Assembly (NCBI GenBank): GCA_000934665.2
Contig: KZ538306.1
Location: 62,001 to 126,000, forward strand
DNA: 64,000 bases
Source of the DNA: Catajapyx aquilonaris
Lineage: Eukaryota
Reading direction: 5' to 3'
The first letter of the stretch is position 1, and the number at the start of each line of letters is the position of its first letter. The notes under the pieces are model-generated. The model was not told the DNA's origin, did not search any database, and was given only the letters and a program-made list of their open reading frames with translations. Below, piece by piece: positions 853 to 51,045 of the stretch. A program made the translations under genes and the position numbers.

Positions 853-3800
853 ATGGCTCGTGACAACAACGGACCCGGCACATTCCCAAGACAATATCAA
901 TCACCGTTGAGTCCAACCCCTTCTGTTTACTACGACTGCATATCGGACGGAGTAAGGCAACTATAAGGGCCAGAAAACTTCTTTTTTTTCATTTGGAAAT
1001 AGTGACAGAAACATTTCAAACTATCACTTTCCAACCTCTGAAAAAGTTTTCTGAAAGTGTTGCAGCCTTTTAAAAAACGAATAAAATATTAAGTAACTTC
1101 AACTTTGCTTTCTCAGAGTCATTCAGTATCAGACGCCTCTTTCCACTCCGTCATATTCGACGAAAGCAGCACTACCATTAACCAGGAGAAACAACATGGG
1201 AACCAGCCACAGACGCCTCCGCACTACCCATCAGATGTTGGTTCAACATCATCATCAGCCAGTAGAAACATGTCAAAGCCTATTTTATCTGAAAAACGCA
1301 ATTTGCACAGAAGCACGTCGTCACCGTCTGCCAAGAGGGTTAAGTTTGCAGACGACACTATGGACCACAAATTGGAAGGAAAAAGATCTTTCAACAGGAG
1401 AACAACTAAGTTCAAAGTGCCATCAATTCAGGACATAGTAAATTTTGTCAAATCGGTCCCATCAAAAGTGTTCGACAAGCCTGTTGAAAATGTCGATTTC
1501 GCTGACAGTCCATATTTGCACCCAGTCCAAAGAAGCATTCCTAAGATACGAAGCACGCCAAGGATGTCCCCAGGTAAGGATCCACTGATTTAGGAGTTAA
1601 TCCGGTTCATATCATGTCAAATATTGTAGAGGTAATGCAATGCAGTACCCACATCATAACTCCCNNNNNNNNNNNNNNNNNNNCCCCCCCCCCCCCCCAA
1701 AAGGCAGGTCCTAAATATTGCGATCTCTGTGGTTAAGCCATATTGTGACAAAACATTCAATTGCAGAACCTGTGTCACCACAAGTGGAGAAATATTACCC
1801 TCGAGATTTTGTTGAACCGGACAATTTCTACGCGGCTAAGGAATATTATGAACCGAACGATGGTTTATTAAGAGATGGGTTGCTTGGAGTCATAGATCAT
1901 AGCAATCTCACTATGAAAATGATTAATCGCAGGGTCAGAAACCTGTCCAAAATAGCGGACATTGTTAATACTAGACAAGTGCGACCAGAGAAGCCCAAGA
2001 AGAAGAAGAAGACGAAGAAGAAGGTAAGTTACGTGAAGCTGGTTGTCAAGACGAGTCTTCCGGTTGTGAAAACTGCATCAAGACATGTCAAACCTGGGAT
2101 TCTAAGCGAAGCAGGTGACATCCCTAGGTATCCGTCTAAACCTAGATCACTTCGGAAACCTCCAGGTGATAAGGATTCAGACACCAAGAGGTATCCTCCA
2201 TCAGACCATGGGCCCGACGACGACGACAGATGGAGCCCACCTGTCAGAGATGGAGGTAAGAAATCTTTCTCCTAATAGGCTTATTCTCTCCGTCGGATGT
2301 TTGTCCCACCTGACAGTACCACTATTTCCCGCACGACGTGAGGGTGGCAGTAGTGTGCAGAGGGAGTCTGCTCCATCTATGCGTGAAGAATAGAACTACG
2401 TGGTAAATTGGCGGACCAACTTGTGTGATTGTCACTCTCAAACTGATAATAATAGGTTTTTTGGCAAATTCTGGAAATAAGCACAGTCTTTGAAATAATT
2501 CATAATCATTCTTAATTGCTAATTTTGCAGCAGAATTCGTTCTGTGTAGTGCATAAAAATTTGGGCAGGCAATAGAGTATATGCGATCATCCAGATTATA
2601 GTGTTAAAGGGTCACGTATATAGTGAATGAATCCATTATTAATTTTTCGTGGCGCTTCATCAGATGCCATTGCCTTATCGTTTTTTCTCCATTTGACACA
2701 AGGACTTTCGCGTGGTGATGCTGACAAGCCAGCACCTCCTAAGGCAATTCCTACACCAGATATGGGCAAGATTCCTACACCAGATATGGGCAAGATTCCT
2801 ACACCAGATATGGGCAAGATTCCTACACCAGATATGGGCAAGATTCCTACACCAGATATGGGCAAGATTCCTACACCAGATATGGGCAAGATTCCTACAC
2901 CAGATATGGGCAAGATTCCTACACCAGATATGGGCAAGATTCCTACAAAAGGAGGAGACGCTGATAGACCCAGATCGACACCTGGTCTAGACGCGGTCGA
3001 ATCTCACCTTAGGCCTTTCTTAGACTTCCAAAAGGAAGCGAATCGCCAGGCATTGATAAGGAAGCGATCGTTAGCAGAAAGGCCGGATAAAGGTCCCATA
3101 ACTATCAGAGATCACCCGAAGCCGACCAGCAGAATAGTTCCAAAGGAGGCCCCGAGGCCTGCTGTTGATCAGCCCTCGGAAGGCGATGAGAAATGGCAGT
3201 ATGTCAGGAAGATGGCTGAAAGACGGATATCTAAATCCAGGGATCCAAAGGAAATGGATGAGATGTCGAGACTGCTCCAGAAAGAAGATCAAGTCTCACT
3301 TCCCAGGAGAAAGCCTAGCAAGAAGCAGCTCCTTCCGGACGAAGAGAAATGGGGGCACGTTCGCGAGATTGCGAGACGCAGGATGGCGCAGGTTGAACTC
3401 CCAAAGGACATGGATGAACTCATGAAGATGGTCGACAGCAAAGGACGTATCAGGCCGAAAGATTCAGGTGTGAAGCCAGTTGATGAAGAAGAACCGATTT
3501 CACCCACGAAGGAAAAACCAATAGACAGTACAGTGTCAGAGAAAAAACCAGAAGCGATTTCACCTCCGCAGCCGCAGAAGCCTTCAATAATACCATCTGT
3601 TAGTCCAAGTGAACAACCGACTGAAGGTAAACCTGCTCCGATGACAAAGCCTGTTGTTTCACCTAAGATGAGAGACGAACCTGAAAGCCGGCCGTCCATC
3701 TACTTTGATTCGACAGAATGCGGAGGACCGGATATATCCGGCGCACACGTGCATAGGAAGTCTGTCGAACCACAGCAGAAACCGGAGGAACGGGAGCCTG

Positions 3801-6800
3801 AAGAGTCAACCAAAATAAAAGAAGAACCGTTCGGCAAACCTAAAGGAAAATCTTCAAGCGAAAAACTTGCTGGAAAAGGCCCACAAAAAGCTCAGCCAGC
3901 AAAAACTGCTTCTAAATCGACTTCGACAACTGATTTTAAAATTCCTGCCACGCCATCGATTTCTGATGCTGAATCAATAGCTTCTGGTACGTCGTTAAAG
4001 TCTGAACCTGAATTAAGGCCTGGTAAGCGATCGAGTTTATCACGTAGGATAAGCGATTGGATGATTAGAAATAAAAGTCATTTAAAAATTCGGCGTAAGC
4101 CATCGACTTCTGAAAGTGAAATAGGCTCTGCGTCACTATCGACTTCAACGACTGAATTAATTCCTGATGTGCCATCAACTTCAAAATCTGAAATAACAAC
4201 TGAGACACGATCGACTTCAACAACTGATGATATAAGCGATACTGCTATAACTTATAAAACTAAAGGTAAAACACCATCTAAGCGACCGCCTTCGAAGAGC
4301 AAAAGTAAAATTTCTGCTGGGCTATCAGCTACAAAAATTAAAAAGAAAAAACCGGACAAAAAGAAAAGTAAAAAGAAAATTTCTCCTCCGCCATCAACTT
4401 CAAAATCTGAAATAACAACTGAGACACGATCGACTTCAACAACTGATATAAGCGATACTGCTATAACTTATAAAACTAAAGGTAAAACACCATCTAAGCG
4501 ACCGCCTTCGAAGAGCAAAAGTAAAATATCTGCTGGGCTATCAGCTACAAAAATTAAAAAGAAAAAACCGGACAAAAAGAAAAGTAAAAAGAAAATTTCT
4601 CCTCCGCCATCAACTTCAAAATCTGAAATAACAACTGAGACACAATCGACTTCAACAACTGATATAAGCGATACTGCTATAACTTATAAAACTAAAGGTA
4701 AAACACCATCTAAGCGACCGCCTTCGAAGAGCAAAAGTAAAATTTCTGCTGGGCTATCAGCTACAAAAATTAAAAAGAAAAAACCAGACAAAAAGAAAAG
4801 TAAAAAGAAAGTTTCTCCTAAAATACCTGACGAAGTGGAAATGTACTGGAAAAGACGGTCCGAAAGAGGCGAAATCTCGCCCCCGTATGGCATAACAAAA
4901 ATAGACAAAGCATCAACATCGACCTCAACATCTGAAATAACAACTGAGACACGATCGACTTCAACAGCTGATATAAGCGATACTGCTACAACTGATAAAA
5001 CTAAAAGTAAAACACCATCTAAGCGACCACCTGGTTGGAAGAGCAAAAGTGAAATTTCAGATCGGCCATCAGATACAAAAATTAAAGAGAAAAAACCAGG
5101 CAAAAAGAAAAGTAAAAAGAATATTTCTCGTCTATTATCTGCTGCAAAAAGTAAAGCGAAAGAACTTGACGAAGAGGACACTTCGTGTTGGAAAAGACGG
5201 TCCAAAAAAGGCAAAATCTCGCCCCCTTATGGCGTAACAAAAAAATACGAAGAAGAACCCAGTAAACGCAGAGAAAAGTATGTTTATCATGGCTTATCAG
5301 ATATGTCCTCAGAATCAACATATACCATGAAACCGGTGAAATCCACAAGTCAAGAGTTTCCTACATATGAATCAAAAGGAACCGTTGGAAGGTCAGAAGA
5401 AGGAGTTACCACACCTCTTCTCGACATGTTACACAAGCCCCATAAATACATCAAAAGTCATTCAGATAGCTTCATTGGCAAAGATTATAAGAAATACGAA
5501 CCCAGAATTCCAAAGGAACCAGGTTCAGACGATCAGAAGGCCAAAAGTAAATCTCTCAAAACTGATGAGATGAAAAGTCCTGAACCCAAAAAGTCGGTGG
5601 CAGAACAGATCAAACCTGGAAAGAAAGTGGCAAAGGCTGCAGAAAAGGCAGGGAAAAAGGGCAAAGAACCTTCAGTAACTGAACTAGAGGCAAGAAAACC
5701 GTCGAAATCTGATAGGAAAGTGGCTGAGGACAAGGCAGCAGAAAGGTCAAAGAAAAGGAGGAAAGAACCACCAGCAACTGAACCCGAAGTAAGAGAACCG
5801 CCCAAATCTGATAAGCCCAGTGATGTTAGTTCAGAGGAAATGGAACGAGAACTGCCAGAAACTTTACCAAAGCCTATGAAGCCTCATAAGCTAAGAAAAG
5901 ACAAGAAACTAAGTAAAGCCGAATCACCAACATCGACACGATCTGCCAAATCTAAAGAAAGGGCTTCCAGAAGAAAAATGAAAGCAGCAAGTCCAGTCGA
6001 CTCAGCAGCAACTGTAGGCTCAGATATATCTATAGAAAGGGCTTCCAGAAGAAAGAAGAAATCAGCAAGTCCAGACGACTCATCATCGTCCGCACTATCT
6101 CATAAGTATACAGACCGAGGTTTTAAAAGGGACAAGAAGCGGTCAGGGCCCAGATCCGATGTGATCAAACCAGATGTGACCAAGTATGAGAGTCCTACAA
6201 AAGAAAAAGAAAAACCAGTAATTTTATCTGACGAGAAATTGTCTGGCAGAGAGCTAGAACAGGTCGATGCCACTACGCAGACGAAACCCCGCAAACACAA
6301 GGGTTCAGATTCAAAGGCATCACCTGATGCCACTAAACCAAGGAAACATGAGGACAAACCCAAACGCGTGAGAAGTAAAAGATCCAAGAAGCTGCTACAA
6401 GAGACCAAACCGGAAGAAATCAGTGGTGCAAGCTCTACAGAAGACAAAGAAAAGCCTACAGTTTTATATGAGGAGACATTGCCAGAAGAGCCATCAACCA
6501 GTACTAGTGCAGCCAAACCTGACAAACACAGGGCTACAGAACCCAGTGTTCCATATCGAGAAGCTGCACGCAATGCTAAAAAAGAAGAAACACCACAACC
6601 AACAAAACCTACAAAACCTGAGAAGATTTCAAGAAAAGACAAGCCACCAGCAACTAAGCCGGATTCTACAGAAGCGGATAAGGGCTCAGGCTCTTCAAAG
6701 GGTAACGATTTACATCGCGCCAAACAGAGAAGAGAAAAGGGCGATAAAAAAGACAAGGGCTCAATTCCTGAGAAGGTCAAAAAAGTTGACATTACTGACG

Positions 6801-9800
6801 AGAGGGTTAAGAAATTCTTGGACAAAGCGTTGACCGGAAACTTGAGCTTGTTAGACAGGGTGAAGGAGCGGAAGCCGAACGAATTCGTGCTGGAGTTTAG
6901 AAATGAGGACTTGGAGAGTGGAACTGATCTGGCACGTATTACTGAATCACAGGTTTCAGCAATATCGAGCATAAGTGACGTCGAATCTCAACAAGACACC
7001 CGAACAAAGCAGGAAGCCTCTATAGTGCTGGAAAGCGGCTCGGATTCTGAGATAAGCCCAAAAACCTGGAAGGACTCATTTCCCAGTAAGCAGTCTCGTT
7101 CTACAGTCGATTCAATCGATAGGAAGGAGGAACTGGCAAGAGAGAGCAAAGAGCGATTGATGCGTTTGCTTAAAAAGTCTAAGCTCAGAGAGGAACCGGT
7201 CGTGGTCACCAAACGTAAAAAAAGACCCGAGATATCAAGTGAATCGAAGGATGAAATCATGCGCATTATGAAAAGAGCCCTGGGATCCGACCTACACCTG
7301 TTGGCTGATGTTGAGAGGCGACTGAACGACCGATCAATGAGCAAAAAACCATCGAAACGCAAACGTGCAGAGAAGCGTGCGAAAAAATACAACACACCAT
7401 CAGAAAGTGTTTCTGACCTAGATTTAGAACTAGAAGCGCTACCAACCACACCCGATGTCACCGAAAAGACGAAACCTGACAAACGCAGGAGTGCACATCC
7501 AAAGTCTGCACCTCAAACTACTGAACCGTCTGCTGAGGACACACCCAAACGCGTCAGTGACAGAAGATCCAAGAAGTTGTCAGATGTAGCAGAACTGGAC
7601 AAAACAAGTATTGAAAGTTCTCCAATAGACAAAGAAAAGTCAATATTATTATATGAAGACGTGTTGCCTGAGAACACCCCAGAAGAGCCCTCAACTAGTC
7701 CCGATGCCGAGGAGAAACCCAGACGCGTGAGGTCTAGAAGATCCAAGAAGCCGTCACCGAGCAGATCCGACATTATGGAACCGGGCACGTCTGAGCAATC
7801 CATAGAACAACCCTCAAGCAGACCCTTGGACAGGAAACCGAGAGAATCTGACAAACACAGGTCAGAACCCAAGGATTCATCTCCGGAAGCTGCACCTGAG
7901 GAGAAACCCAGACGTGTGAGGTCTAAAAGATCCAAGAAGCTGTCACCGACCAGATCCGATGTTACGGAACCGGACAATACAGGTTATGAGAGTTCTCCAA
8001 AAGACAAAGAAAAGCCCAGATTATTATATGAGGATGTAGTGTCTGAGAAATACCCAGAAGAGCCCTCACCCAAACTCCGTGACAAGAAAGCGAAAAAATC
8101 TGACAAACACAGGAAGGAGGAACCCAAGAGTGCATCTCCAGAAGCTGTACTTAAACCAACCGGATCAGAGGAGAAAGCCAGACGTGTGAGGACTAAAAGA
8201 TCCAAAAAGCTGTCACTGAGCAGATCCGATGTTACGGACCCGGACAAGACAAGGGATGAAAGGTCTCCAAAAGACCAAGAAGAGCCCAGATTATTATATG
8301 AGGATGTATTGTCTGAGAAATACCCAGAAGAGCCCTCAACCAAACACCGTCCCAAGAAACCGAGAAAATCTGACAAACACAGGAGGGCAGAACCCAGGAG
8401 TTCATCTCCAGAAGCTGTACTTGAACCAACCGGTTCTGAGGAGACACCCAGACGTGTGAGGTCTAAAAGATCCCAGAAGCTGTCACCGAGCAGATCCGAT
8501 GTTACGGAACCGGACAATACAGGTTATGAGAGTTCTCCAAAAGACCAAGAAAAGCCCAGATTTTTATATGAGGATGTAGTGTCTGAGAATTACCCAGAAG
8601 AGCCATCAACCAAACTCCGTGCCAAGAAACCGAGAAAATCTGACAAACACGGGAAGGCGGAACCCAGGGGTTCATCTCCAGAAGCTGTACTTGAACCAAC
8701 CGGATCCGAGAAGAAACCCAGACGTGTGAGAACTAGAAGATCAAAGAAGCTGTCACCGAGCAGATCTGATGTTACGGAACCGGACAAGACAATGGATGAA
8801 AGGTCTCCAACAGACGAAGAAAAGCCCAGATTTTTATATGAAGATGTAGTGTCTGAGAATTATCCAGAAGAGCCCTCAACCAAACTCCGTGCCAAGAAAA
8901 CGAAAAAATCTGACAAACCCAGGAGGGCGGAACCCATAAGTTCATCTCCAGAAGCTGTGCTTGAACCAACCGGTACTGAGGAGAAACCCAGACGTGTGAG
9001 GACTAAAAGATCACAGAAGCTGTCACCGAGAAGATCCGATGTTACTGAACCGGACCAGACAATAGATGAAAGGTCTCCAACAGACGAAGAAAAGCCCAGA
9101 TTATTATATGAGGATGTATTGTCTGAGAAATATCCAGAAGAGCCCTCACCCAAACTCAGTGCCAAGAAACCGAAAAAATCTGACAAACCTAGGAGGGCGG
9201 AACCCATCAGTTCATCTCCAGAAGCTGTGCTTGAACCAACCGGTTCTGAGGAGAAACCCAGACGTGTGAGGACTAAAAGATCACAGAAGCTGTCACCGAG
9301 AAGATCCGATGTTACTGAACCGGACAAGACAAAGGATGAAAGGTCTCCAAAAGACGAAGAAAAGCCCAGATTATTATATGAGGATGTATTGTCTGAGAAA
9401 TACCCAGAAGAGCCCTCACCCAAACTCAGTGCCAAGAAACCGAAAAAATCTGACAAACACAGGAGGGCGGAACCCATCAGTTCATCTCCAGAAGCTGTGC
9501 TTGAACCAACCGGTACTGAGGAGAAAGCCAGACGTGTGAGGACTAAAAGATCACAGAAGCTGTCACCGAGAAGATCCGATGTTACTGAACCGGACAAGAC
9601 AAAGGATGAAAGGTCTGCAAAAGAGGAAGAAAAGCCCAGATTATTATATGAGGATGTATTGTCTGAGAAATACCCAGAAGAGCCCTCACCCAAACTCAGT
9701 GCCAAGAAACCGAAAAAATCTGACAAACCCAGGAGGGAGGAACCCATAAGTTCATCGCCAGAAGCTCTACTTCTTGAACCAACCGGATCTGAGGAGAAAC

Positions 9801-12800
9801 CCAGACGTGTGAGGTCAAAAAGATCCAAAAATCTGTCACCGAGCAGATCCGATGTTACTGAACCGGACAAGACAAGGGATGAAAGGTCTCCAAAAGAGGA
9901 AGAAAAACCCAGATTTTTATATGAGGATGTAGTGTCTGAGAAATACCCAGAAGAGCCCTCACCCAAACTCCGTCCCAAAAAACCGAGAAAATCTGACAAA
10001 CCCAGGAGGCAAGAACCCAGGGGTTCATCTCCAGAAGCTCTAGTTGAACCAACCGGTTCTGAGGAAAAACCCAGACGTGTGAGGACCAAAAGATCACAGA
10101 AGCTGTCACCAAGCAGATCCGATGTAATTAAACCGGACAAGACACGGGATGAAAGGTCTCCAAACGACGAAGAAAAGCCCAGATTTTTATATGAGGATGT
10201 AGTGTCTGAGAAATATCCAGAAGAGCCCTCACCCAAACTCCGTGCCAAGACACCGAGAAAATCTGACAAACCCAGGAGGCAAGAACCCAGGAGTTCATCT
10301 CCGGAAGGTTCTGTACTTGAACCAACCGGTTCTGAGGAGAAACCCAGACGTGTGAGGACCAAAAGATCACAGAAGCTGTCACCAAGCAGATCCGATGCTA
10401 CGGAACCGGACAAGACAATGGATGAAATGTCTCCAAAAGACGAAGAAAAGCCAAGATATGAGGACGTATTGTCTGAGAACTACCCAGAAGTACCCTCCAC
10501 CAGTCTGGGTGCCACCAAACCGAGGAAACTTGACAAACGCAGAATGACAGAACCAATTCCCTCAGTCCCAGTCGATGCCAGCAAACCAACGAAACAAGAC
10601 AAGCGCAGGACTTCAGAACCCAGCAGTTCACGTCGAGAAGGTGCGTCTGAAGTCACTGAACCAACCGGTGGTGAGGACAAACCCAGACGGGTGAGTGCTA
10701 GCAAATCCAGGAAGCTGTCAGAGAGCAGATCCGATGATACCGAACTGCCGAAACTGGACAAACGCAGGGTTTCATATCCAGACGAAGTACGGACCAGACC
10801 CGATGCCACCAGACCGACAAAACAGGACAAACGAAGGGCTTCAGAACCCAGTGGTTCCCGTCGAGAAGGTGCACCTGAAGCCACTGAACCAACAAGATCT
10901 GAAGGGAAACCCAGGCGTGTGAGTGCTAGCAAATCCATGAAGCTCCCAGAGAGCAGATCCGATGAGGCAGAACCGGACAAGACAAGAAATGAGAGTTCTC
11001 CAAAAGACAAAGAAAAGCCTCGATTTTTATACGAGGAGGTATTGTCTGATAAATACCCAGAAGAGCCCACAACAAGTCCTGATGCTGAGGAAAAACCCAG
11101 GCGCGTGAAATCTAGTAGATCCAAGAAGCTGCCAAAAAGCAGATCCGATGTTTCGACAACGAACCTGTCTGAGCAAGACCTTAAACAGACCTCAACCAGC
11201 GACTACGCCAAGAAACCCAGAAAATTTGACAAACCTAGGAGACAAGAACCCAAGAGTATATCTCCAGAAGGTGCACCTGAACCAGCAGTTTCAGAGGAGA
11301 AGCCCAGACGTGTCAGGTCTACAAGATCCAAGAAGCTGTCAGAGAGCGGATCTGATGTAACGAAACCGGACAAGACAATGGATGAGAGTTCTTCAAAAGA
11401 CCAAGAAAAGCCAATATTTTTATATGAGGACACATTGTCTGAGCACTACCCAGTTAAGGCCAAACCCAGAAGATCCAGAAAGCTGAGAGAGAGCAGACCT
11501 GATGTAACGGAACCTGACAGGGCCAGGCGTGATACTTCTGCAAAATACAAAAAAGAGCCAGAAGTTGTCACATTGTCTGTGACGGACTTAGCACCGTCCT
11601 CAACCACTCTGGATGCCACCAAACCAAGAAAACCTGACAAACAGAGGCGGTCAGAACCCAGTCCTTCAATCCCTCTCGATGCCACCAAACAGGACAAACG
11701 CAGGGCTTCAGAACCCAGGGGTGCATATCCAGAATCAGCACCTGAACCACCCGGTGCTGAAGACAAACCCAGACGTGTGAGTGCTAGCAGATCCAGGAAG
11801 CTGTCAGAGAGCAGACCTGACAAACAGAGGCGTTCAGAACCCAGTCCTTCAATCCCTCTCGATGCCACTAAACATGACAAACGCAGGACGTCAGAACCCA
11901 GGGGTGCATATCCAGAATCAGCACCTGAACCACCCGGTGCTGAAGACAAACCCAGACGTGTGAGTGCTAGCAGATCCAGGAAGCTGTCAGAGAGCAGACC
12001 TGATAAACCCGTACAGGACAAGACCAGGCATGAGCCTTCTTCCAAAGACAAAGGAGAGCCAAAAGAAGTTCCTGGTGGCACATTGTCTGTAACGGACCAA
12101 GAACAGCCTTCAACCAGTATCGATGGAACCATACCAAGAAAACATGACAAACAGAGGCGTTCAGAACCAAGTCCTTCTGTCCCTCTCGATACCACCAAAC
12201 AGGACAAGCGCAGGGCTTCAGAACCTAGTCCTTCAGTCCCTCTCGATGGTACAAAACAGGACAAACGCAGGACTTCAGAACCCAGTCCTCCAGTCCCTGT
12301 CGATGCTACAAAACAGGACAAACACAGGACTTCAGAACCCAGTCCTTCTGTCCCTCTCGATGCCACCAAACAGGACAAGCGCAAGGCTTCAGAACCCAGT
12401 CCTTCAGTCCCTCTCGATGGTACCAAACAGGACAAACGCAGGACTTCAGAACCCAGTCCTTCAGTCCCTCTCGATGGCACCAAACAGGACAAACGCAGGT
12501 CTTCAGAACCTAGTCCTTCAGTCCCTGTCGATGCTACAAAACAGGACAAACGCAAGGCTTCAGAACCCAGTCCTTCAGTCCCTCTCGATGCTACAAAACA
12601 GGACAAACGCAGGGGTTCATATCCAGAAGCAGCACCTGAAGCCACTGAACGGACTAGTGCTGCAGACAAACCGAGGCGCGAGAGTTCTAGAAGATCCGAT
12701 GTTACGGAACCGGACATGACAAAATATGAGGACGCATTGTCTGATAAATCCCCAGAAGCGCCCTCAACTAGTGCCGAAGCTGAGGACAAACCCAGACGCG

Positions 12801-14971
12801 TGAGGTCTAGTAGATCCAAGAAACTGTCACCGAGCAGATCCGATCTGTCGACACCATACATGTCTGCTCAAGACCTAGAACAGCCCTCAACCAGACGCTA
12901 TACCAAGAAACAGGGAAAATCTGATAAAAACATGTCAGAACCCAAGGATTCTTCTCCAGAATCTGCAGCTGAAGAGAAACCCAGACGTGTGAGGTCTAAA
13001 AGTTCGAAGAAGCTGTCAGAGAGCAGATCCGATGTAACGAAACCGGATAAGACAAAGCATGAGAGTTCTCCAAAAGACAAAGAAAAGCCCAGATTATTAT
13101 ATGAGGACGCACTGTCTGAGCACTACCCAGAAGAGTCCTCAACAAGTCCCGAGGACAAACCCAGGCGCGTGAGTGCTAGCAGATCCAGGAAGCTGTCAGA
13201 GTCCAGACCCGATGAGATCAAACCGCACAAGACCAGGGAAGAAATGGCGCCAAAAGACAAAAAAGAGCCACAAATAGTTCCTGGTGACTCATTGCTTGAA
13301 GAGGCTCGTAAGCAGTTCTCAACCGGATTCGCTGTCAGCAAACCAAGACAACCTGACAAACATAGGCGTTCGGAACCCAGTCCCTCAGTCCCTGTCGATT
13401 CCACAATACCGACGAAACCTGATAAACGCAGGGCTTCAGAACCAACGGGTCCACATCCAGAAGACGCACAGACCAGACCGGACAAGACCAGACATGGGCG
13501 TTCTCCAAAAGACACGGAGGAGCGAGAAATCGTTCAAGGTGTTACCGTGTCTGTGAAGGACCATGAACAGCCCTCAACTAGTGTGGATGCCTCCAAACAG
13601 AGGAAACATGACAAACGGAGGCGTTCAGAACCAAGTCCTTCAGTCCCTGTCGATGCCACCGAACAGGAAAAACGCAGGGCTTCAGAACCCAGAGGCACAC
13701 ACCCAAAAAGAGCGCCTGAAGTCACTGAACCAACAAGACCTGAAGAGAAACCCAGACGCGTGAGTGCCAGCAAATCTAGGAAACTGTCAGAGACCGAACC
13801 CGATGAGACCGAACAGGACAGAACCAGGTATGAGAGTTCTCCAAAAGACAAAGCACGCAGTCCCTCAGTCTCATTCGGTCCAAGCGAACCGACGATACAT
13901 GACAAACCTGAAAAACACAGGCGTTCAGAACCAAGTCCTTCAGTCCCTCTCGATGCCACTAAACAGGACAAACGCAGAGCTTCAGAACCCAGGAGGCCAT
14001 ATCCAGAAGATGCACCTGAGGACAAACCCAGACGTGTGAGTGCTAGCAGATCCAGGAAGCTGTCAGAGAGAAGACCTGATGAAACCGAACAGGACAAGAC
14101 CAGACAGGAGCCTTCCTCCAAAAGAGAGCCTGGTGGCACATTGCCTGTGACGGAGCAACAACAGCCTTCAACCAGTGCCCATGGAACCATACCAAGAAAA
14201 CATGACAAACACAGGCGTTCAGAACCAAGTCCTTCAGTCCCTCTCGACGCCAACAAACAGGACAAACGCAGGGCTTCAGAAGCACCACCTGAAGCCAAAC
14301 CGACCCCCGATAAAATTCGCAGGGGATCCATACCCTACAAGCTCAAAGAACAAGACATTACTGATCACGACGTTAACAAACTTTTGAAGAAAGCCGTGAA
14401 CACGAACCTAAGCTTGTTAGATAGGGTGACGGAGCTGAAGCCGAACCAATTCGTGCTGAAGTTCAGGAAGGAGGACTTGGAGAGTGGAACTGATCTGGCG
14501 CCTTTGTCTGAAGCGTCACCAAGATCGAGCATAAGCGGATTCGAACTGCGACAAGATGACAGCCAGCTGGTAGATCAGTTCTCAGAGTCGGATTCGGATG
14601 ATAGTAATCGACCACGTAAAAAATCGTGGCGATCCAGGAAGTGGTCTTTGTCTCCAAGGAATTCGGTTTCAAGGAAGGAAGATGTGGATAAAGCGAGTAA
14701 GAAGCGTTTGAAGAAGTTGCTGAAGGAATCTAAAGTCAGGGAGATAAAGTCACCTGAAGCGGAGGATGAACCCGAAGAAGTTGAGCGAAGGAGAAGAAAA
14801 TCGGACGAAGATATCTTTAAAATGATGGAACATGCTTTGACCTCAGATCTAGACGTGTTGTCAGATGTTGAGAGAAGATTGAGTGACCGAGCTTTAAGAA
14901 GAAAGAAATCCAAGATAAAGAAAGGCAGTGATGATGAACCAACTCCAGGTACCTCTCATGACAGAAGGTGA
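853..14971 (+). CDS. Giant uncharacterised Lys/Ser/Pro/Glu/Arg-rich repeat protein (cluster gene 1), about 4437 aa; exons 853-951, 1117-1573, 1767-2255, 2703-14971
   Basis: 12.3-kb uninterrupted ORF (2627-14971). Upstream ORFs join it through GT-AG introns with matching phases (0, 1, 1) and the total length is divisible by 3. Exon 1 reads MARDNNGPGTFPRQYQSPLSPTPSVYYDCISDG. AATAAA lies near 15070. Intron 2 contains an N gap, so an exon could be missing. Confidence 0.8.
1665..1683. other. Assembly gap (N run) next to poly-C
   Basis: Run of n characters. Confidence 1.
2747..2947 (+). repeat. Coding minisatellite, 24-bp unit x8 (IPTPDMGK)
   Basis: attcctacaccagatatgggcaag repeated identically 8 times plus a partial unit. 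Confidence 0.97.
4172..5130 (+). repeat. Coding tandem repeat, ~216-bp (72-aa) Ser/Thr- and Lys-rich unit, 3 near-identical copies plus 1 diverged
   Basis: Units start at 4172, 4391 and 4607 (PSTSKSEITTET...KIKKKKPDKKKSKKKISPP); diverged copy from ~4915. Confidence 0.93.
7900..10500 (+). repeat. Coding tandem repeat, 270-bp (90-aa) unit, ~10 copies; degenerate copies continue to ~14300
   Basis: ccagacgtgtgag recurs every 270-273 bp (EEKPRRVRxKRSxKLSPxRSDVTEPDKT...LYEDVxSEKYPEEPS). Confidence 0.95.
12150..12612 (+). repeat. Coding tandem repeat, 57-bp (19-aa) unit x~8 (SEPSPSVPLDATKQDKRRx)
   Basis: tcagaacc..gtcct recurs at 57-bp spacing (12161, 12218, 12275, 12332...). Confidence 0.93.
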
Positions 14972-15412
14972 TAAAGCAGATGAGAATCATGCAACAATAC
15001 TACTCTACAATTATTTCAACTAAAAATTTCCTGTGTACAAATGGATGTGATTTATTAATATGTAACAAAATAAATACATTTTTACATACCACTCGTCATC
15101 ATCATCACACAATATTTCATTGCCCAACAAACGCATTTACTCTCTTGGCAACAGCAAATTGCAGTTCATATACGCATTGTTGCTGATTGAGAAAGCTAAA
15201 TTTTAATCATCGAGATTCTAAATTAATAGTGTGCACTCGCAATTATTATTTATCACGAGCATCAGAGAAAGAGCTATAACCACCTGCCGGATGTGAACAG
15301 CTAACCAGCACTATTTTATGATGTAAACCGCACGGTATGTACCTACTGTAATAAGGTAAATATATTCAGAGCACAGTTCCCGAGGTGTTGTCAGCTCAAT
15401 CTGCTGCCTACA

Positions 15413-18400
15413 ATGTCCATGAGAGACATAAATTTGCCAGTCCGATTCTGGTGCGCGTGTCCAGAAAAGGACGTCTTTTTCGACTGCATACCATCAGACC
15501 AAGAAGAAGACGATGGCTACTATGTGAGATCTCTCCCATCACCATATTAATATTATACTTGTGTATTTTAACCACATTTTTCTTTCTCCAATTAGTCCCC
15601 AGTTGAATCGGCAGCATCCTTCCACAGCATTTATTCTAACTTCAGTGATTTAAGCAGAACTGCAAGTCTTGATGTAATTTGTCATTCCTGCAACCCTTCG
15701 CCCGAACCAAAGTCAGGATGCTTTTGTGAGGACGTCAAACATTCCCACAGCCAGAACCAGGAGATATATGAAGACATCCAAGAAGACAACATCTCGTAAG
15801 AATACAATTTGTCTTATTCGCATATTCTGCATCAAGAAGCAAAATTTTAATTCGACATAGAGTCCACACAAAATATTGCACGCCTAATGTGGAAATATTT
15901 CTTACAGCTTCTTAAGCACAAAGGATTCTCCACGATTTACAGACCATCCAGTCCGACAGCCTTCAACATCTTCGGAGTCAAGTGCAGAAGACATAGATTC
16001 GACCCGAACTGAATCTGCACAACCGCAACAATTAATTGACGACTACAATGTTGCAGATCACCTCAGTAAACCCGAGGCAACTTCAGGTCTAGTCACGTAT
16101 GAAGAAAATCAGAGCCGAGTCCTTGCAGAGCCTACTTATCTAATGGAAAGAGAAGACTCTACAGAGAATCTCAATCATACAGAGCTTACTAATACGACAA
16201 AGAGAAAAGACTCCAGAGATTATCACGATCATGCAGATCTTACTGGTCTGCAGGAGAGAGAAGACTTCAGAGACGCACACAATCATAGAGAGTTTACTAA
16301 TACGACAAAGAGAAAAGACTCCAGAGATTATGACAATCATGCAGATCTTACTGGTCTAGAGGAGAGAGAAGACTTCAGAGACACACACAATCATGCAGAG
16401 GTTATTACTAATACGACAAAGAGAAAAGACTCCAGAGATTATCACAATCATGCAGATCTTACTGGTCAGCAGGAGAGAGAAGACTTCAGAGACGACTTCA
16501 GAGACACACACAATCATAGAGAGTTTACTAATACGACAAAGAGAAAAGACTCCAGAGATTATCACAATCATGCAGATCTTACTGGTCAGCAGGAGAGAGA
16601 AGACTTTAGAGACGACTTCAGAGACACACACAATCATAGAGAGTTTACTAATACGACAAAGAGAAAAGACTCCAGAGATTATGACAATCATGCAGATCTT
16701 ACCGGTCTGCAGGAGAGAGAAGACTTCAGAGACGCACACAATCATACAAAGTTTACTAATACGACAAAGAGAAAAGACTCCAGAGATTATCACAATCATG
16801 CAGATCTTACTGGTCTGCAGGAGAGAGAAGACTTCAGAGACGCACACAATCATACAAAGTTTACTAATACGACAAAGAGAAAAGACTCCAGAGATTATCA
16901 CAATCATGCAGATCTTACTGGTCTAGAAGAGAGAGAAGACTTCAGAGACAAACACAGTCATACAGAGCTTACTAATTCGACGAAGAGAAAAGACTCCAGA
17001 TATTATCACAGTCATGCAGATCTTACTGGTCTAGAAGAGAGAGAAGACTTCAGAGACAAACACAATCATACAAATCTTACTGGTCTAAAGGAGAGAGAAG
17101 ACTCCTCCAGAAACGAGTCCAAGATGAGCCCCGAAGTTACATCAGGTTCGTCCAAACCTGAACAAAGAAAAACTGACTACTCAGGGAAGAACAGCCACAA
17201 AGGAGATGCTGCTGGAGCAAAGAAAAGGCGCGATGGAGATGGTGTCAAACCGCAGAAAAATAGCTCGATGGTCAAGCCGGCTAAGGCATCAGAATCGCAA
17301 GGTTTCACACGTAGCTACCACTATCACGTCGAACTGATAAAGTCTAACAAGCCGAAGTCGTCGAGCACTATGGAGGCCACCAGTGGCAACGACAGGTGTG
17401 GAGATTCTCAGAAGTCGTTGAAGGACAGGGTCGTGGGGATGCTGACCAAAGATGACAGTCTGGTGAGCAGGTTCGTCGAAGCGGTGAGGAGCCTGACAAA
17501 CATCTATGACTACGCAAGCAGCAGCAGCGACGAAGATTGCGACGAACCAGGTCAAATAGTCAGACATAAGCACAAGGGCGCAGTGCTGTTCATGCCTCCA
17601 GGTTGGAACGACCCGAAGATGTCCGCCCGTGGTTCGTCCAGGTCATCGAGAAGACACGCCAAGAATGCCAGATACGATGGAAGTGATCCTTCAAGGACAA
17701 CTGCACACAACTCCTGGACGCATCGTCGCTCGTCTGACCCAACAACACAGAATGTCAATGAAGCTGACCGTCCAAAACGTCATGTGGAAGTTGGTCCACG
17801 AACAGATCAGATCCGGCCCGAAAAGCAGCCAGAAACACCCCAGGGATCTGACGGGAAAGAAGACTTGCACGTGTCATTCAAGTTCGATGAACCTGAGCCT
17901 TGTAAGGTCAACGAACCTCCTCGTACGTTCAGTTACCCTCAACCTGTCAAGTTCACTGACCCTAAACCTGTCAAGGTCAGTGAACCTAAAGGAAATAATG
18001 GTACAAACGGCTTGGGTCCTGCACATACGACGTTCAACATGAACAATGAGTGTCCATTGAACAAGAAATGCGTGTACGTGTGCGGAGAGGATGGTTGTGA
18101 GATTCTGAACGCGGAAAAACAGCAGAGGAAGACATCAGCCGAGGGCCAAAAGTCGTACAGAGGCACCACGACAATACCCAACGAGCGTAGCAATCGGGTC
18201 AGGCCCACGTCAGAAGAGCTGAGGAAGCTGTGGGACATTTACAACTCGCAACTCGAGTCCCAAGAAGCTGACGGCAATGAAATTCCAAGCAATTCCCAGA
18301 CGGCTTTAATCGAAGACGACGCTGAATCGCACAGGACGTCCCGTTTTTTGGATGAGGGCCGAGGTTCTGGACAAGGTCCGGGATTTTCGGCCAACAATGA

Positions 18401-21013
18401 GAAGGTTACCAACAGTGGCCCGGACAATTCGAGGAATCAGATCACGCAGCTGGCGTACGTCGTGTCGACTGTTCTTCGCAGAAGCAGCAGCAGCAAAGGT
18501 CGATTCAAGTTTCCGAAGCTGTCGGAGCTGTGGAAGGATCCGGATAAATCAGAGACATCGGCGAAAAACCATGGATTCGAACCAAACAACCAACAGATTG
18601 GCAACCAAAATTTGCTGGCGGCAGACATCATGACGCAGCAGCCAGGAGGCGACTTAATACCGGTGAGCATCGACGACTCCAGATTGAAAGTTCCAGCGAA
18701 GACGCCCGATCAGATGTCGGAGGTGTCCCAACATGGGGACGACGACGACGACCCGTACTTCGACGCTTCGTCGACACTTTCCGTGGACTTGCCCGAGTTG
18801 CCAAAATTGGAGATGATGGAATCGCCGAAACTGACTGACGGTCACACGATGTCGGAGCCCAACCTGTCTAGGACGTCCCGGAAGACGTTGAAGAGGGTGA
18901 GGTTCCTCGACGCTGGGACGATCGTCGAGGAGGACGTCCAAGAAGACATCTGTCCGTGGAATGTCCTGACCGCATTGGTTTACAGCGATTCGGAGCAAGG
19001 ACGCGACGTGTCGGAGACTTCATCGCTACCTTCGAGGATACCAACGTTGTCCGTGAGTCGGCATCTTCACGACAACGTCGACAGGCCATCAGCCGAACTG
19101 CTGTCCACGATCGCTGAGAAGAAGACCCAATTTCCTGTTGCCAACGACGTTTCCAGAGATACGCAATCAGGAAGCGACGACAACAATTGTAAAGAGACCA
19201 GCTCGAGTTCGGAGAGCATGAGCGATGACGAACCAAAGGTCTCAGACGTCGCGGATGACACAGGAAGCGTCAAAGTAGGTCAAGAAGCGCCAGCAGGCAC
19301 ATCCAGATCGTGCCGCTCTCCGGATGAAGGACGTCTTATTGCTGTCGAAGCGGCCGAACCGTCGACGTCGAGGGCGCCGCCACGGACCCCGCAGTCGACG
19401 CTGCTGAGTCTGATAAAGCTACGAGACAAGTGCAAGCACAGCAGACAGCACGTCATGACATCCTGCGAGCAACACCCCGGGGAAGAACCAGCGTCGCATT
19501 GTAGCACCGTCGACAACGTCCTCGCAGAGTCATCCAGTTTCATCAGGCCTACAGAGGGCAAGAAGCGAATCGACATCCTCGTGAGCAACAGGAGCAGGTC
19601 TGAAGAAACACAGGGTGCAGGAGAGAAGCAGGTGAGACCACTCACGACAATGTCGTCATTTTGAGGCCTGTTTACGACCTCACGATTTGAGTCTCGGTCG
19701 CACGACTAGACCATTTGAGACTTGGTCGCACGACTAGACCATTTGAGACTTGGTCGCACGACTAGACCATTTGAGCCTGGGTCGCACGACTAGACCATTT
19801 CAGACTTGCTCGCACGACTATACGATTTGAGACTTGGTCCCACGACTGGACAATTTCAGACTTGGTCGCACGACTAGACCATTTGAGCCTGGGTCGCACG
19901 ACTATATGATTTCAGACTTGGTCGCACGACTATACGATTTCAGACTTGGTCGCACGACTATACGATTTCAGACTTGGTGGCACGACTAGACAATATCCGC
20001 CTTGGTCGCACGACTAGACAATATCAGACTTGGTCGCACGTCTATACGATTTCAGACTTGGTCGCACGACTAGACGATTTGAGCCCGGGTCGCACGACTT
20101 GACGGTTTGAGACTTTGTCGCACGACTAGACGATTTGATACTCGGTAGCACGACAGCCACGACTAGACTATTTCAGACTTGGTCGCACGACTAGACCATT
20201 TGAGACCAACAACTGGTCGTGCGACCCAGGCTCAAATCGTGAGGGCGTAAACAGGGACCTTAACATTTGACGTACGATGCAGGTTCGACGTATAGCGATC
20301 GAGGCGACCGACTCGGTCGAGGAGGTGGTACTGTCCATAATCTCGACCACCACGTCGTCGTCGGCAGGGATGACCGGATCGTCGCACCAGGACACGACGG
20401 ACATGAGCAGCAGCAACACCTATTGCAAGAGCAGCGAGTGCGACGACACCAGTTCCAAGAGCACCAATCCGAGGACGTCGACGACCGCCAGCCGACCGTC
20501 GCACGACGGTGCCCTGGTGTCGGTGGAGGAGATACTGCCGCCTCGACACCTGACCAACACCTCCGATCTGTCAGGTTACGGGATTCGGACAGGCTCTACC
20601 AGCGACTCCGAACCGGATCGTCAACAGCCAGTCGCTGCAGTCGTCAACCAACAAGAATCATCAGGTACTTTAAAAAAATATATTTTAATTAATCAAACTA
20701 GCAACGACAAGTGTTGTAAAGTACTGAAGGGTTTGGATCATGCAAGGATGAAAAAGTGACCAAAAGTGGAAAGGCTAACAATATAAAATATCTGAATGTT
20801 TCTCCATATATGAATGTGCGTGCTTCAGGTGGACCGTCGACGTCGACTAATGCGACGTCGTGTACGGCGGGTAGGAGGTCGCATAGAAGTAACATTGCCA
20901 CGCAGACTGAACTGACTGAAGACCTTGCTGAAGACGATGGAGACGATGATGAGTCTGAAGCCACCAAAAAGCGCGTCCTGAAGGAATTAACTGAACTGTT
21001 TAGGAGATCGTAA
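15413..21013 (+). CDS. Uncharacterised low-complexity protein with His-rich repeats (cluster gene 2), about 1533 aa; exons 15413-15523, 15596-15795, 15908-19631, 20283-20664, 20829-21013
   Basis: 3.5-kb ORF (16143-19664) stays open upstream to an acceptor at 15907. GT-AG junctions have consistent phases (0, 2, 0, 1) and the total is divisible by 3. Exon 1 reads MSMRDINLPVRFWCACPEKDVFFDCIPSDQEEDDGYY. An unspliced form ending at the TGA at 19664 is also possible. Confidence 0.72.
16150..17105 (+). repeat. Coding tandem repeat, 108-bp (36-aa) His-rich unit x~8, with 111- and 120-bp variants
   Basis: TNTTKRKDSRDYHNHADLTGLQEREDFRDxHNH; unit starts at 16188, 16296, 16407, 16527, 16647, 16755, 16863, 16971. 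Confidence 0.95.
19665..20259. mobile_element. Non-autonomous TIR element (PIF/Harbinger-like MITE) filled with a 28-bp tandem array
   Basis: Left end ggcctgtttacgacctcacgatttgagtctcggtcgcacgac is the near reverse complement of the right end gtcgtgcgacccaggctcaaatcgtgagggcgtaaacagggacc. Flanks are tga and tta. Interior has ~18 copies of gacttggtcgcacgactagaccatttga. Confidence 0.75.
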
Positions 21014-21468
21014 CATATGATATAAAAATTCATAAATTAATGCGCGTGTGTATGCTGTTTTTTTTTGTTTTACTTGTCAGGCTTTTAAAATCAGGCTACA
21101 AGTTTATTTATTTTTTAAATGTGACAATATATAATAATAAAAGAGACAGGCAGTGGAGAAAAAATTAATTTAAACTAAGCAACGAACATTCATATGTAAA
21201 TGCAAGATTGTTGAAGTCAGTCGACTAGAACAACCCGTATGTAGCAAAATTATGAGTAATTAATTAAATGTCTGCATGATTCACTAGTCAATTACACTTG
21301 CTCGGTGCAGGTTACATGAGTGCTGCCCCCATTAGAACTGGAAGTGTAGGGAACATCATCAATGAGTGAGTATGATTTTCGTAGTCAATTTATTCAAGAT
21401 GTTATGATTTTTAATAGATATTATGTTATTCATATATTAGAAAGTATTGGACCAGCCCTCACCTGACA

Positions 21469-23378
21469 ATGGATTGCCAGGAGATTCCAGTCAACTCGAA
21501 AGGGACGCACTCCACAAGTGACATCTTCTACGACTGCAACACTGAATCTGAGAGAGACGTATTCTTGGTAATTAATTTTGATGTTAATTTTAATTTATAG
21601 GAAAACAGTTAACCTTACTCCTTGTTATGCAGACACCAATTACTTCGAATGAGTCCATGAAAAGCGCTTATTCTAGATCAAGCGTTGAATCAGAATCTAA
21701 CAGAAATGCGGATGCACCAGCAGACACATTGCCGCACACTGACAACAAGACGCCGACTAACCCCGACAGGAGTTGCAGCCCTCTAGGACATGCCAAGAGG
21801 GAAGCTGACAACGACTTCAAATTTCCCAGCGGACCGGTAAGCAACTCTCCGTTCTTGAAAGGGAAAGCTAATCCAGAGGGGAACCCAAAGTGCAGCGAAT
21901 GGAACGTGCACGTCGATAATAATCAAGTGACACGATGGCCTGAGGTGCAGCAATCACAATGCGTAAGAGATCATTCTGATGTTGAAAATGGCAACATGTG
22001 CTCATGCAGCAGGTTTGAGCCGACAAGTCAGCTTCGGTGTGTCACACGCACTGAAGATTGGGTACCATGGTCCGGTGGCAGCGACATGAGGCCTGAGTTG
22101 CAATTTAGATGCGGAAGAGATAGTGTTGATAAGGGCTGCATGTCTGCACGCTGCACTACAAGGCAGCGTCAACGTGCCGCTGAAGATCGGATTCGGTGGT
22201 CCGCCAGTGAATGTGATCGAGTACGGCCTGTGGTGCAGCAATCAAATCATTATAATAATGTCAACCATGGCCGCTTGTCTGCAGGCAGTGATCCCAGACA
22301 GACTTATAGGGAGCATCGACGTACTGAAGATGCTGTTCCGTGGTCCTGCAGTGAGTGTGATCGGGATCGAGTTCGGCCTGAGTTTAAACATTCAAAATGC
22401 ACAAGAGATCATGCTAACGTCGAAAAGGGCTGCATGTATGCAGGCAGTAGGTGCGATCCGAGACGGTGTTCCAGGCAGCATCAACATCGGCAACATGTCA
22501 CAAACACTGAAGATGAGGTTCCGTGGTCCAGGAGTGAATATGATCGAGTACGGCCTGAAATGAAACGTTGCATAAGACATGTTGCGACAAAGAACAGGGA
22601 CATTAGTGGTGATGTCAGTCCTAGCAGGTTAAAATCTGAGGAGGTCCGTGATGGGCGGCCACATCCGCACAAGCCTGTCGACAACCGTAACGAGCTAGAT
22701 GCATATTCAACACATGGTAAGGCATCAAATCATAACAATAATTATGACATGCAGGTGAAAGCTCCGCAGCAAACAGAAAGAAAATCTGTACGGACAAGGG
22801 AGTACGTCCTGCAAGCCAAGGAATCGGAGAACTTGGACACCATCCTCACTGACCTTAAGAGCTTAATTACGCAGCGGATCTCAGTGCTGGACAATGCGGT
22901 GAAGCAGGTGCAAAGCAAACGTTTGAGGATCCAGGAGGAGGAGGAGGCGAGGGAACGGCTGGACATGCGGATTTCCCTACTCACGGCTATAACTTCAGAC
23001 AAGTCAATCATGGAGCATATCTCCAAAGAGACGGAGAGCGACCCGCAATTTGACGAGTACTTACGAAGCTACGATGACGCACACAAGCATGGAGTCGGGA
23101 GTAGCAACAGTGACAACCCAGTAGTCCCTGTTAGTAAGAAACTAAATCTAGTCGCAGAAGCGTCTAAAGTCGGCTGTGATGCAAAGGCGGACAAGAACGA
23201 AACTGCGATGCGCAAGGCCGTCGAAAGCCACTTGCAGCCTTTCGCCGATTTCCAACGCAAGACGAATCATGCGACTAAGATGAGGTTGTCTTCCAAAAGT
23301 CGAAAGCATGATATCACAACTCGTGACAAAGACCTGCGAAGTTCGACAAAGCGTATCACCACCAAGAAATCCCTGTGA
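21469..23378 (+). CDS. Uncharacterised protein (cluster gene 3), about 614 aa; exons 21469-21567, 21633-23378
   Basis: 583-aa ORF plus a phase-0 first exon, MDCQEIPVNSKGTHSTSDIFYDCNTESERDVFL. Contains Cys/Trp-bearing repeats, a coiled-coil-like segment and an AVESHLQPFADFQ block shared with gene 1. Confidence 0.72.
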
Positions 23379-23914
23379 TCGTTAAAAGGTTGTAAAAAAA
23401 GAAACGTCAAGGGATCTCTCAATTCAGGAATTTTATTTCCGCTAGTTAGCATACATGACAGATCATAAATGTATACGACATACAACAAACAAGAATCCGA
23501 AATAGTGACATATATACTCTCTCTCTCTCTCATAATGACACAATCTCTTCTTTTTTTTGTCAATATTCCCAATGCCAAAGCATTTGAAAAAATATCGAGG
23601 AAGTTCACAATAGTTGTACTGTACCAATTTTTTCTCGGGTGGTAATAAATTAAACCTAATGTGATGTCAGTGTGATGTCAATATTCTCTTCTTCAACAGG
23701 AACTGAACAAGTAACGAAAAACTAAAGATTCAACGCTCTAACTTGATCCCATTCACCAACGAAAAAATAATAATAATTAAAGAATCAAGGAAAACTTTCA
23801 CCTGACGACTACAGGTAGTGTATACAAACAGCAGAAAAAAATAATCCCCTCCAGTCTTACCTTCTTCCTCCTCCAAAATTTACGGCCCCAAAATATTGGG
23901 CTGGTCCACTTTAT

Positions 23915-39578: not shown

Positions 39579-40728
39579 GTAAGTACTGATTGTCCTGTAA
39601 GTTTTGACAAAAATAATTAAAGAGTTATAATCTGACTTGGTTTAATCAGAGTAAATTGAGGACAATGCAAATTATGTTGACTTGTTCTGGTCTCATCAAG
39701 CAAAGTACGTTGATTACGTGATAATTATGGTAATTAAACACCGCATACAACTAGCCTTATTCATGGTTCACCAAGTGAGTTCAATATTAATTAAATGGCG
39801 GTTACTTGTACTGAAGATGTACAAAAAATCAGTATTATTTTATTTGTTATTATTTGTTATACAGTATTCGTATTATTATATAATTTTTTTATTACACACG
39901 GTAGGTGCGAACAGCATAATTGAACCATGGATTCGGAACTTATGTTACATCGAATTTTAGCTCATGCTCTATTAATTTATATTAAATCTAAATGCTTAAA
40001 AAAAATTGAGCTTTAATTTTAGTCCCGCTGCTAGTTACTGCTACCTTAGCAGCTCCATTACCAACACTTGGCACTGCTAAGTTAGCAGTAACTAGGAGTA
40101 AAATTGAACCCTTGCTCTTCAGCTTTGAACATGACATAATTATGTCGTTGTTTTTTGTTCCTGTCGTCTTTTTTGCCCTTGAGAAATTAACATTCAAAGT
40201 CGGATGGAGGAAGCTGCATACACATTATTATTAATAACTCATGTGACTTTTACCTTCACGTATGGGTAATTACACGCACGATGATTGTAATTATTACAGG
40301 GGCGCGGATTTCTACCGACGCATGAGACCAGTGCACTTATTTAAAGTAGGACAAAACGAGAGACGTGATGCAACAATATCAAGACGTAATTTATTCTGTT
40401 ACGTACTCACTTCACATGTACCGTACCGTGGCGAACAGGTGTATGAAACAGCTACTTATTATACCGGTAATGAATTTACTGTAAAAATGGCAATGGGTTA
40501 CCATGGCAAATTGGCATAGCCACTATAATGTTTGTTGGGCTGGGGTGTGCACAAGACAGACAGCATTTGAGGCATGTACAGACCGACAATATGCGCCCAG
40601 CTTGCAACCCTTGCGATTAACTTAAATCATCACGCAATGCAACGTACCGTGCCTGTCATGGCCACAAGTACTGGCGCAGTCACCCAAAAGCCATACATAT
40701 GACACCAACACCTTCCGATTCCAGGACC

Positions 40729-50980: not shown

Positions 50981-51045
<65 letters not shown>

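Follow-up and report, generated by a model that had tools for sequence, protein, structure and literature searches.

Three tandem genes of Catajapyx aquilonaris encode repeat-expanded, predicted disordered proteins that share a short FFAT-like N-terminal head

The 64-kb window of Catajapyx aquilonaris contig KZ538306.1 analysed here carries, in tandem and all on the plus strand, three genes that were designated g1 (853-14971), g2 (15413-19664) and g3 (21469-23378). They very probably form a real family of paralogues with a functional N-terminal head. The conserved core of this head resembles the FFAT (a pair of phenylalanines within an acidic tract) motif by which proteins dock on VAP, and the probability that the head is a VAP-binding FFAT motif was put at about 0.4. 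The genes appear to be the products of an old gene duplication, after which the disordered bodies of the proteins would have diverged and grown by separate repeat expansions. The sole element kept by all three would be a set of short linear motifs at the N-terminus, interrupted by a phase-0 intron and consisting, in order, of a tract rich in Ser, Thr and Asp, the core [VI][FY][FY]DC, a variable acidic linker and an SxxSxxS ladder that opens exon 2.

A first-pass annotation of the window had placed a short first exon of 33 to 37 codons, on the same strand, in front of each of the three large open reading frames (ORFs). All three exons were recovered with the same positions and sequence (in the lines below a slash marks the splice junction).

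853..951, plus strand: g1 exon 1, 33 codons, MARDNNGPGTFPRQYQSPLSPTPSVYYDCISDG; donor GGA/GTAAGG at 952, phase 0.
15413..15523, plus strand: g2 exon 1, 37 codons, ending in PEKDVFFDCIPSDQEEDDGYY; donor TAT/GTGAGA, phase 0.
21469..21567, plus strand: g3 exon 1, 33 codons, ending in STSDIFYDCNTESERDVFL; donor TTG/GTAATT, phase 0.

Every first exon begins at the first in-frame ATG following a stop codon, with an A at -3, and has a length of 99 or 111 bases, so that intron 1 is in phase 0 in all three genes. Each predicted acceptor has a pyrimidine tract; the sites are TTGCTTTCTCAG/A at 1117 in g1, TTTCTCCAATTAG/T at 15596 in g2 and CTTGTTATGCAG/A at 21633 in g3, giving introns of 165, 72 and 65 bases, respectively. 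The second exons open with SHSVSDASFHSV (g1), SPVESAASFHSIYS (g2) and TPITSNESMKSAYS (g3). At 37 to 53 bases 5' of each ATG there are AT-rich strings resembling a TATA box, which hint weakly at separate promoters. The junctions are those that would be spliced in vivo if the genes are expressed as predicted from the DNA.

Similarity between the heads exceeded chance expectation. In the six-frame translation of the window the pattern [VI][FY][FY]DC occurred three times, exclusively at the three heads, against a mean of 0.13 in block shuffles; as the pattern had been taken from the heads themselves, the count is a post hoc one. In a leave-one-out comparison, two heads were used for training, the profile was searched against 1487 six-frame ORF pieces (82,396 amino acids), and each time the third head was the top non-training match, with E values of 0.18 (g1), 3.9e-6 (g2) and 2.5e-4 (g3). 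Direct blastp comparison of the heads gave E values of 0.057 for g1 and g2 and 0.002 for g2 and g3. From the acceptor onwards, exon 2 aligned without gaps in all three genes, with Ser at +5, +8 and +11 throughout (chance of the triplet 3e-5 by shuffling of the 24-mers), further Ser at +14 and +17 in g2 and g3, and a conserved S[FM][HK]S at +8 to +11. The length of the head varied only between the DC of the core and the donor, where 4, 12 and 10 residues are found. Neither the pattern count nor the profile search found a fourth head in the window.

Significant alignment of the heads, an intron that agrees in position and phase with respect to exon 2, and the tandem one-strand layout bore out the proposal that g1, g2 and g3 are paralogues. 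At the DNA level, conservation of the 5' ends was confined to the codons around (T)TC/TAC GAC TGC, and no shared promoter or intron DNA was found among the three 5' ends beyond these core codons, which indicates that selection acts on the peptide. As judged from the sequences, the genes are old duplicates under selection on the head peptide. The head could instead owe its persistence to common ancestry alone, or to constraints set by the mRNA's 5' end or by translation start, and have no binding function. In favour of this explanation, the heads are short and three sequences are too few for selection to be measured; against it, the five-residue core and the serine ladder stayed fixed while the remainder diverged beyond recognition, the flanking codons differ, and the promoter and intron DNA is unconserved. 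We regard it as improbable.

The gene models into which the heads were placed comprise four exons in g1 (853-951, 1117-1573, 1767-2255 and 2703-14971; spliced protein of 4437 amino acids), three in g2 (15413-15523, 15596-15795 and 15908-19664; 1355 amino acids) and two in g3 (21469-21567 and 21633-23378; 614 amino acids).

1117..1573, plus strand: g1 exon 2, opening with the S+5/S+8/S+11 ladder SHSVSDASFHS; donor CAG/GTAAGG at 1574, phase 1.
1767..2255, plus strand: g1 exon 3.
2703..14971, plus strand: g1 exon 4, a single open frame up to the stop; an alternative acceptor in the same frame lies at 2664.
15596..15795, plus strand: g2 exon 2, free of Met, with the Ser ladder at +5, +8, +11, +14 and +17.
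15908..19664, plus strand: g2 exon 3, running to the stop; a strong alternative donor, phase 0, lies at 19632.
21633..23378, plus strand: g3 exon 2, running to the stop, with the Ser ladder at +5, +8, +11, +14 and +17.
15069..15074, plus strand: AATAAA, 98 bases past the g1 stop.
23644..23649, plus strand: AATAAA, 266 bases past the g3 stop.

Alternatively, the proposed first exons may go unused or the genes may yield no protein, for instance because the gene models are wrong, the exons are untranslated leaders or the genes are decaying duplicates. Several observations would fit such an account: g3 has an in-frame ATG six bases 5' of the proposed acceptor, which is a possible alternative start; an acceptor-like site lies just 5' of the g1 ATG; intron 2 of g1 contains an assembly gap; and the database searches returned no relatives in which conservation could be tested. 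Weighing against it are the open frames of 4114, 1258 and 594 codons, which span many differing repeat families as well as unique stretches, and exon 2 of g2, which lacks Met, cannot itself start translation and so needs an upstream coding exon. Moreover, three independent sets of ATG, motif and donor in front of three long ORFs are unlikely by chance, and it is the peptide that is conserved, not the surrounding DNA. There is little likelihood, on this evidence, that this alternative holds.

The gap in g1 is a run of N at 1665-1683, beside a poly-C run, and the length of intron 2 is uncertain because the gap lies inside it. At the 3' end of g2, the first AATAAA after the stop is found only at 21136. 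A 28-bp minisatellite (19682-20206; 18.4 copies, 83% matches) begins 18 bases past the stop, and two open frames that overlap each other (20264-20692 and 20271-20759) separate it from that AATAAA. Given the minisatellite, the late AATAAA and the donor at 19632, g2 may have either a long 3' untranslated region or further exons.

The core of the head was scored with the 19-residue FFAT matrix of Table EV4 of PMC7705450, in which 0 is ideal; the cut-off in that paper is a score between 0 and 3. The heads scored 1 (g1), 2.5 (g2) and 1 (g3) with the matrix adapted at position 4 to D/E, the printed matrix being the phospho-FFAT version. A second motif of this type was found in g2.

925..945, plus strand: g1 head, FFAT-like core VYYDCIS, score 1.
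15473..15493, plus strand: g2 head, FFAT-like core VFFDCIP, score 2.5.
21523..21543, plus strand: g3 head, FFAT-like core IFYDCNT, score 1.
18753..18773, plus strand: g2 second FFAT-like motif, DDDDD-PYFDASS, at residue 1053 after five Asp, score 1.

The core is close to the ideal [DEST]-[FY]-[FY]-D-[AC]-x-[DEST], and the V or I at position 1 costs one point. The flanks are acidic or phosphorylatable (LSPTPS and DGSHSV in g1, ACPEKD and SDQEED in g2, THSTSD and ESERDV in g3), and the scores take these tracts into account. Shuffled versions of the proteins gave 0.37, 0.36 and 0.055 matches per protein at a score of 2.5 or below, and the chance of such a match within the first 40 residues was 0.002-0.0065. 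Among the six-frame ORF pieces, six of the eight matches at this threshold fell in the coding frames of g1, g2 and g3. The first-pass annotation had spoken of a short targeting head, and the FFAT-like score of the conserved core is in line with that suggestion.

If the core is a conventional FFAT-type motif, it would dock the N-terminus on the MSP domain of VAP, at the cytosolic face of the endoplasmic reticulum (ER), and the serine ladder, by analogy with the phosphorylated flanks reported in PMC7705450, may be an acidic flank that is tunable by phosphorylation. On this reading the proteins would be lineage-specific disordered scaffolds held on VAP by the head, and their long charged bodies would serve as spacers or as multivalent platforms. 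Spanning the exon 1/2 junction of g2 (15515-15616), the spliced sequence DQEEDD-GYYSPVE-SAASFH scored 2 as a phospho-FFAT motif with the published matrix. A weaker look-alike, DVFLTPIT, occurs at the corresponding place in g3.

Several points tell against VAP as the partner. Position 1 is conserved as V or I, where the matrix prefers an acidic residue or S/T, and position 5 is always C, so the constraint may come from another partner. The alteration of position 4 means that the matrix may differ from the authors' own conventional version. FFAT-like strings are common: according to PMC7705450, the phospho-FFAT version gives 2,079 of 20,373 human proteins a score below 3. The g1 head, at an E value of 0.18, fits the head profile least well. 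In addition, g1 is strongly basic, and its numerous K/R runs and 79 [KR][KR]x[ST] sites would equally suit a nuclear or nucleic-acid-binding protein.

A substantial, though minority, prospect is a real family in which the head is a short linear motif or small module for some partner other than VAP, such as a lineage-specific binder, a localisation signal or a degron, and the likeness to FFAT is coincidental. Besides the frequency of FFAT-like strings in proteomes (PMC7705450), this explanation draws on the V/I at position 1 and the C at position 5, which are present in three of three heads beyond what the FFAT matrix demands, and on the S[FM][HK]S and serine ladder of exon 2, which lie outside the classical FFAT motif. 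It does not readily account for the fact that all three heads keep precisely positions 2 to 5, the four most heavily penalised in the matrix, nor for the S/T/D/E flanks at each head and the additional FFAT-like motifs elsewhere in the family. A different known motif was also considered. The ATG8-interacting motif of the LC3-interacting region (LIR) type has an aromatic residue followed two positions on by I, L or V, after acidic residues. YDCI of g1 and FDCI of g2 fit this consensus; YDCN of g3 does not, so that only two of three heads would qualify and the conserved D and C would be left unexplained. An LIR-type function of the core is thus very unlikely. A resemblance of the head to the 'FFD box' of LSm14 was rejected, as it had no support from Pfam.

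A second type of docking motif was found in two of the three proteins. Docking of protein phosphatase 1 (PP1) is mediated by motifs of the RVxF, or [KR][KR]V[KR]F, type. A strict KRV[KR]F, followed by acidic residues, occurred exactly once in g1 and once in g2, compared with 0.023 and 0.004 expected from shuffles.

1333..1347, plus strand: g1 KRVKF, RVxF-type PP1-docking-like motif, residue 106.
18891..18905, plus strand: g2 KRVRF, RVxF-type motif, residue 1099.

The motif stands 81 residues from the preceding FFAT-like motif in g1 and 46 residues from it (the second FFAT-like motif) in g2, and we infer that it would recruit the PP1 catalytic subunit. No strict KRV[KR]F was present in g3, so PP1 docking is not a trait of the family, which is a further point against a joint VAP and PP1 function. 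RIRW of g3 was rejected as an RVxF motif, being a variant of the repeat unit xVPW. In the literature collection searched, no paper contained both 'FFAT' and 'RVxF'.

Beyond the head, each body was filled with a different tandem repeat, as the first-pass annotation had described; both the listing of arrays and the repeats at the protein level agreed with its view that the bodies grew by unrelated expansions. A germline/sperm or structural role, which it had also suggested, found support in neither direction. Pairwise comparison gave no cross-matches between the repeat-filled bodies of g1, g2 and g3.

2747..2947, plus strand: g1 24-bp array, 8.4 copies, 100% matches, PTPDMGKI.
4171..4819, plus strand: g1 216-bp array, 3 copies.
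7896..10497, plus strand: g1 270-bp array, 9.6 copies.
12139..12613, plus strand: g1 57-bp array, 8.3 copies, KQDKRRxSEPSPSVPLDAT.
16145..17105, plus strand: g2 108-bp array (54-bp half unit), 8.3 copies.
21921..22583, plus strand: g3 repeats, diverged and at the protein level, four units of ED.[VI][PR]WS and spacers rich in Cys.

A 183-base array is also carried by g1. The 24-bp array is either very recent or homogenised, as its copies are identical; its copy number is perhaps unreliable in the assembly. Many long open frames on the minus strand (2596-14955; for example 8860-10479, 539 codons) overlap g1. They mirror the repeats and accompany a strong excess of A over T on the plus strand (AT skew up to 0.39), and they are most likely by-products rather than genes.

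The proteins themselves are predicted to be soluble and almost wholly disordered. All three are very hydrophilic, with a grand average of hydropathy of -1.2 to -1.5, and no membrane-span-like stretch or signal-like N-terminal stretch was found in any of them (top 19-residue Kyte-Doolittle mean 0.85). AlphaFold2 modelled the g1 module as isolated helices (predicted local distance difference test, pLDDT, 63; predicted template modelling score, pTM, 0.22), confident amphipathic helices among them. In the model of g3 exon 2, 431 of 581 residues were below pLDDT 50, and one long helix was confident. The start of exon 2 was below pLDDT 50 in this model, which covered exon 2 only.

22791..22997, plus strand: g3 long helix, the sole confident stretch of the model, pLDDT about 90.

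Since the proteins have no hydrophobic or signal-like segment and are predicted to be disordered, the head motif may be exposed to the cytosol; the proteins could be either cytosolic or nuclear.

The three large ORFs had been described as looking unrelated. This held for the repeats, which differ; it did not hold for other parts of the proteins, since g1 and g3 share an AVESHLxPFxDFQ block (residues 446-485 of g1 and 562-598 of g3; blastp E 8e-6), and g1 and g2 each have one of the strict KRV[KR]F motifs described above. A profile of the AVESHL-type helical motif found five copies in g1, one in g3 and none in g2. Within g1, a module of about 210 residues is duplicated, and its copies A and B are 51% identical.

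2993..3112, plus strand: g1 AVESHLRPFLDFQ block shared with g3, residues 446-485.
23217..23327, plus strand: g3 AVESHLQPFADFQ block shared with g1.
6770..7402, plus strand: g1 internal module A, sharing 51% identity with module B and holding two copies of the helical motif.
14330..14968, plus strand: g1 C-terminal module B, isolated helices without a globular fold (AlphaFold2).

Searches for relatives and domains agreed with the earlier statement that no known domain is recognisable in these proteins: Pfam, PDB and the protein collections gave nothing. For the five exon translations nothing reached the Pfam gathering score (best E 0.034, sub-threshold noise), and the heads matched nothing in Pfam at E values up to 10. 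No match below E 0.55 was obtained among PDB sequences. Exon 2 of g3 had no matches by word index and none by a full HMMER search of 1.84 billion representatives (E ≤0.001); word-index searches likewise returned no matches for the C-terminal module of g1 compared with longer proteins or for the C-terminal 856 residues of g2, and the ESM Atlas gave no usable match. The genes would therefore count as orphans within the collections searched, whose coverage of this animal group is uncalibrated.

Spliced housekeeping genes surround the family and the window is eukaryotic. Its neighbours between 24400 and 64000 include IMPDH (IMP dehydrogenase, minus strand, about 24.4-26 kb), a gene with F-box_4 and zf-TRAF_2 domains, APH-1, a plastin-like gene (CH domains), an NVL-like gene (double AAA and nucleolin-binding domain), a THAP gene and a TPP enzyme. 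No MSP domain was present among the conserved neighbour genes in this interval. At 40621-41019 on the plus strand, an open frame comprises a stretch rich in Pro and Tyr and, after it, a Cys-bearing piece (CRYWCRTRDWKYFCCDTG); this frame had no Pfam match and may be a small peptide gene. A second assembly gap (N, about 50770-50990) has a poly-C/G run on one side and a (GA)n microsatellite on the other. The whole window gave no matches in scans for Rfam families and tRNAs.

The closest known counterparts of the heads are the FFAT clients of VAP-A, VAP-B and MOSPD2, such as OSBP/ORP and CERT/STARD11, named in PMC7705450. Like them, the heads carry two aromatic residues (positions 2 and 3) followed by Asp (4) and the small residue Cys (5), are flanked by S/T/D/E, lie in protein predicted to be disordered and soluble, and score inside the 0-3 candidate range given there. 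Unlike these clients, g1, g2 and g3 have V or I at position 1, a motif at the extreme N-terminus and a serine ladder across an intron. They also differ in having no lipid-transfer, membrane-binding or other domain in Pfam and no sequence homology to known clients.

Two large proteins combine comparable features. According to PMC11094025, ELYS/MEL-28 binds VAPB via FFAT and phospho-FFAT motifs and has a site for PP1 docking in the immediate vicinity of one of them (FFAT-2); it resembles g1 and g2 in having a large, heavily phosphorylatable disordered region and FFAT-type motifs with a PP1-docking motif nearby. The present genes differ from it in having no Pfam domain and no detectable homology, and in that g3 has no PP1-type motif. 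AKAP11 (AKAP220) needs an FFAT motif for binding to VAPA/B, according to PMC12663438, and is a long scaffold with such a motif, as g1 may be; g1 adds confidently predicted amphipathic helices and its 79 basic-x-S/T sites. Unlike AKAP11, the three proteins match no AKAP or RII-binding Pfam model. AKAP11 also binds PP1. Lineage-specific tandem families of repeat-expanded disordered proteins are, as a general kind, common in animal genomes, and share with the present family an arrangement of paralogues in tandem, low-complexity bodies that diverge fast, separate expansions of a minisatellite-like type and a single short, conserved terminal motif. What sets g1, g2 and g3 apart from generic families of this kind is that their conserved piece ties to a specific, testable docking motif. 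The FFAT-like scores of the heads, the SxxSxxS ladder, the KRV[KR]F motifs of g1 and g2, and the helical motif of g1 and g3 are new here.

Taken further, the proteins might be giant, lineage-specific phosphatase scaffolds docked on the ER, in which FFAT motif and phospho-ladder form a switch on VAP and the RVxF motif brings in PP1; we consider this unlikely, together with its extension that the charged repeat body (up to about 4,400 residues) sets a distance or bridges the ER to chromatin, the cytoskeleton or another membrane, with repeat number as an evolvable ruler.

If the head does not bind VAP, g1, g2 and g3 would be another lineage-specific family of disordered repeat proteins. If it does, they would be a young family built on a single docking motif, the rest of each protein being free to evolve by repeat expansion. 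In that event they would show plainly that the conserved 'domain' of a protein family can consist of nothing more than a short linear motif, and would provide additional candidates, of great length, for ER tethers or PP1 scaffolds in an animal group in which such proteins have received little study.

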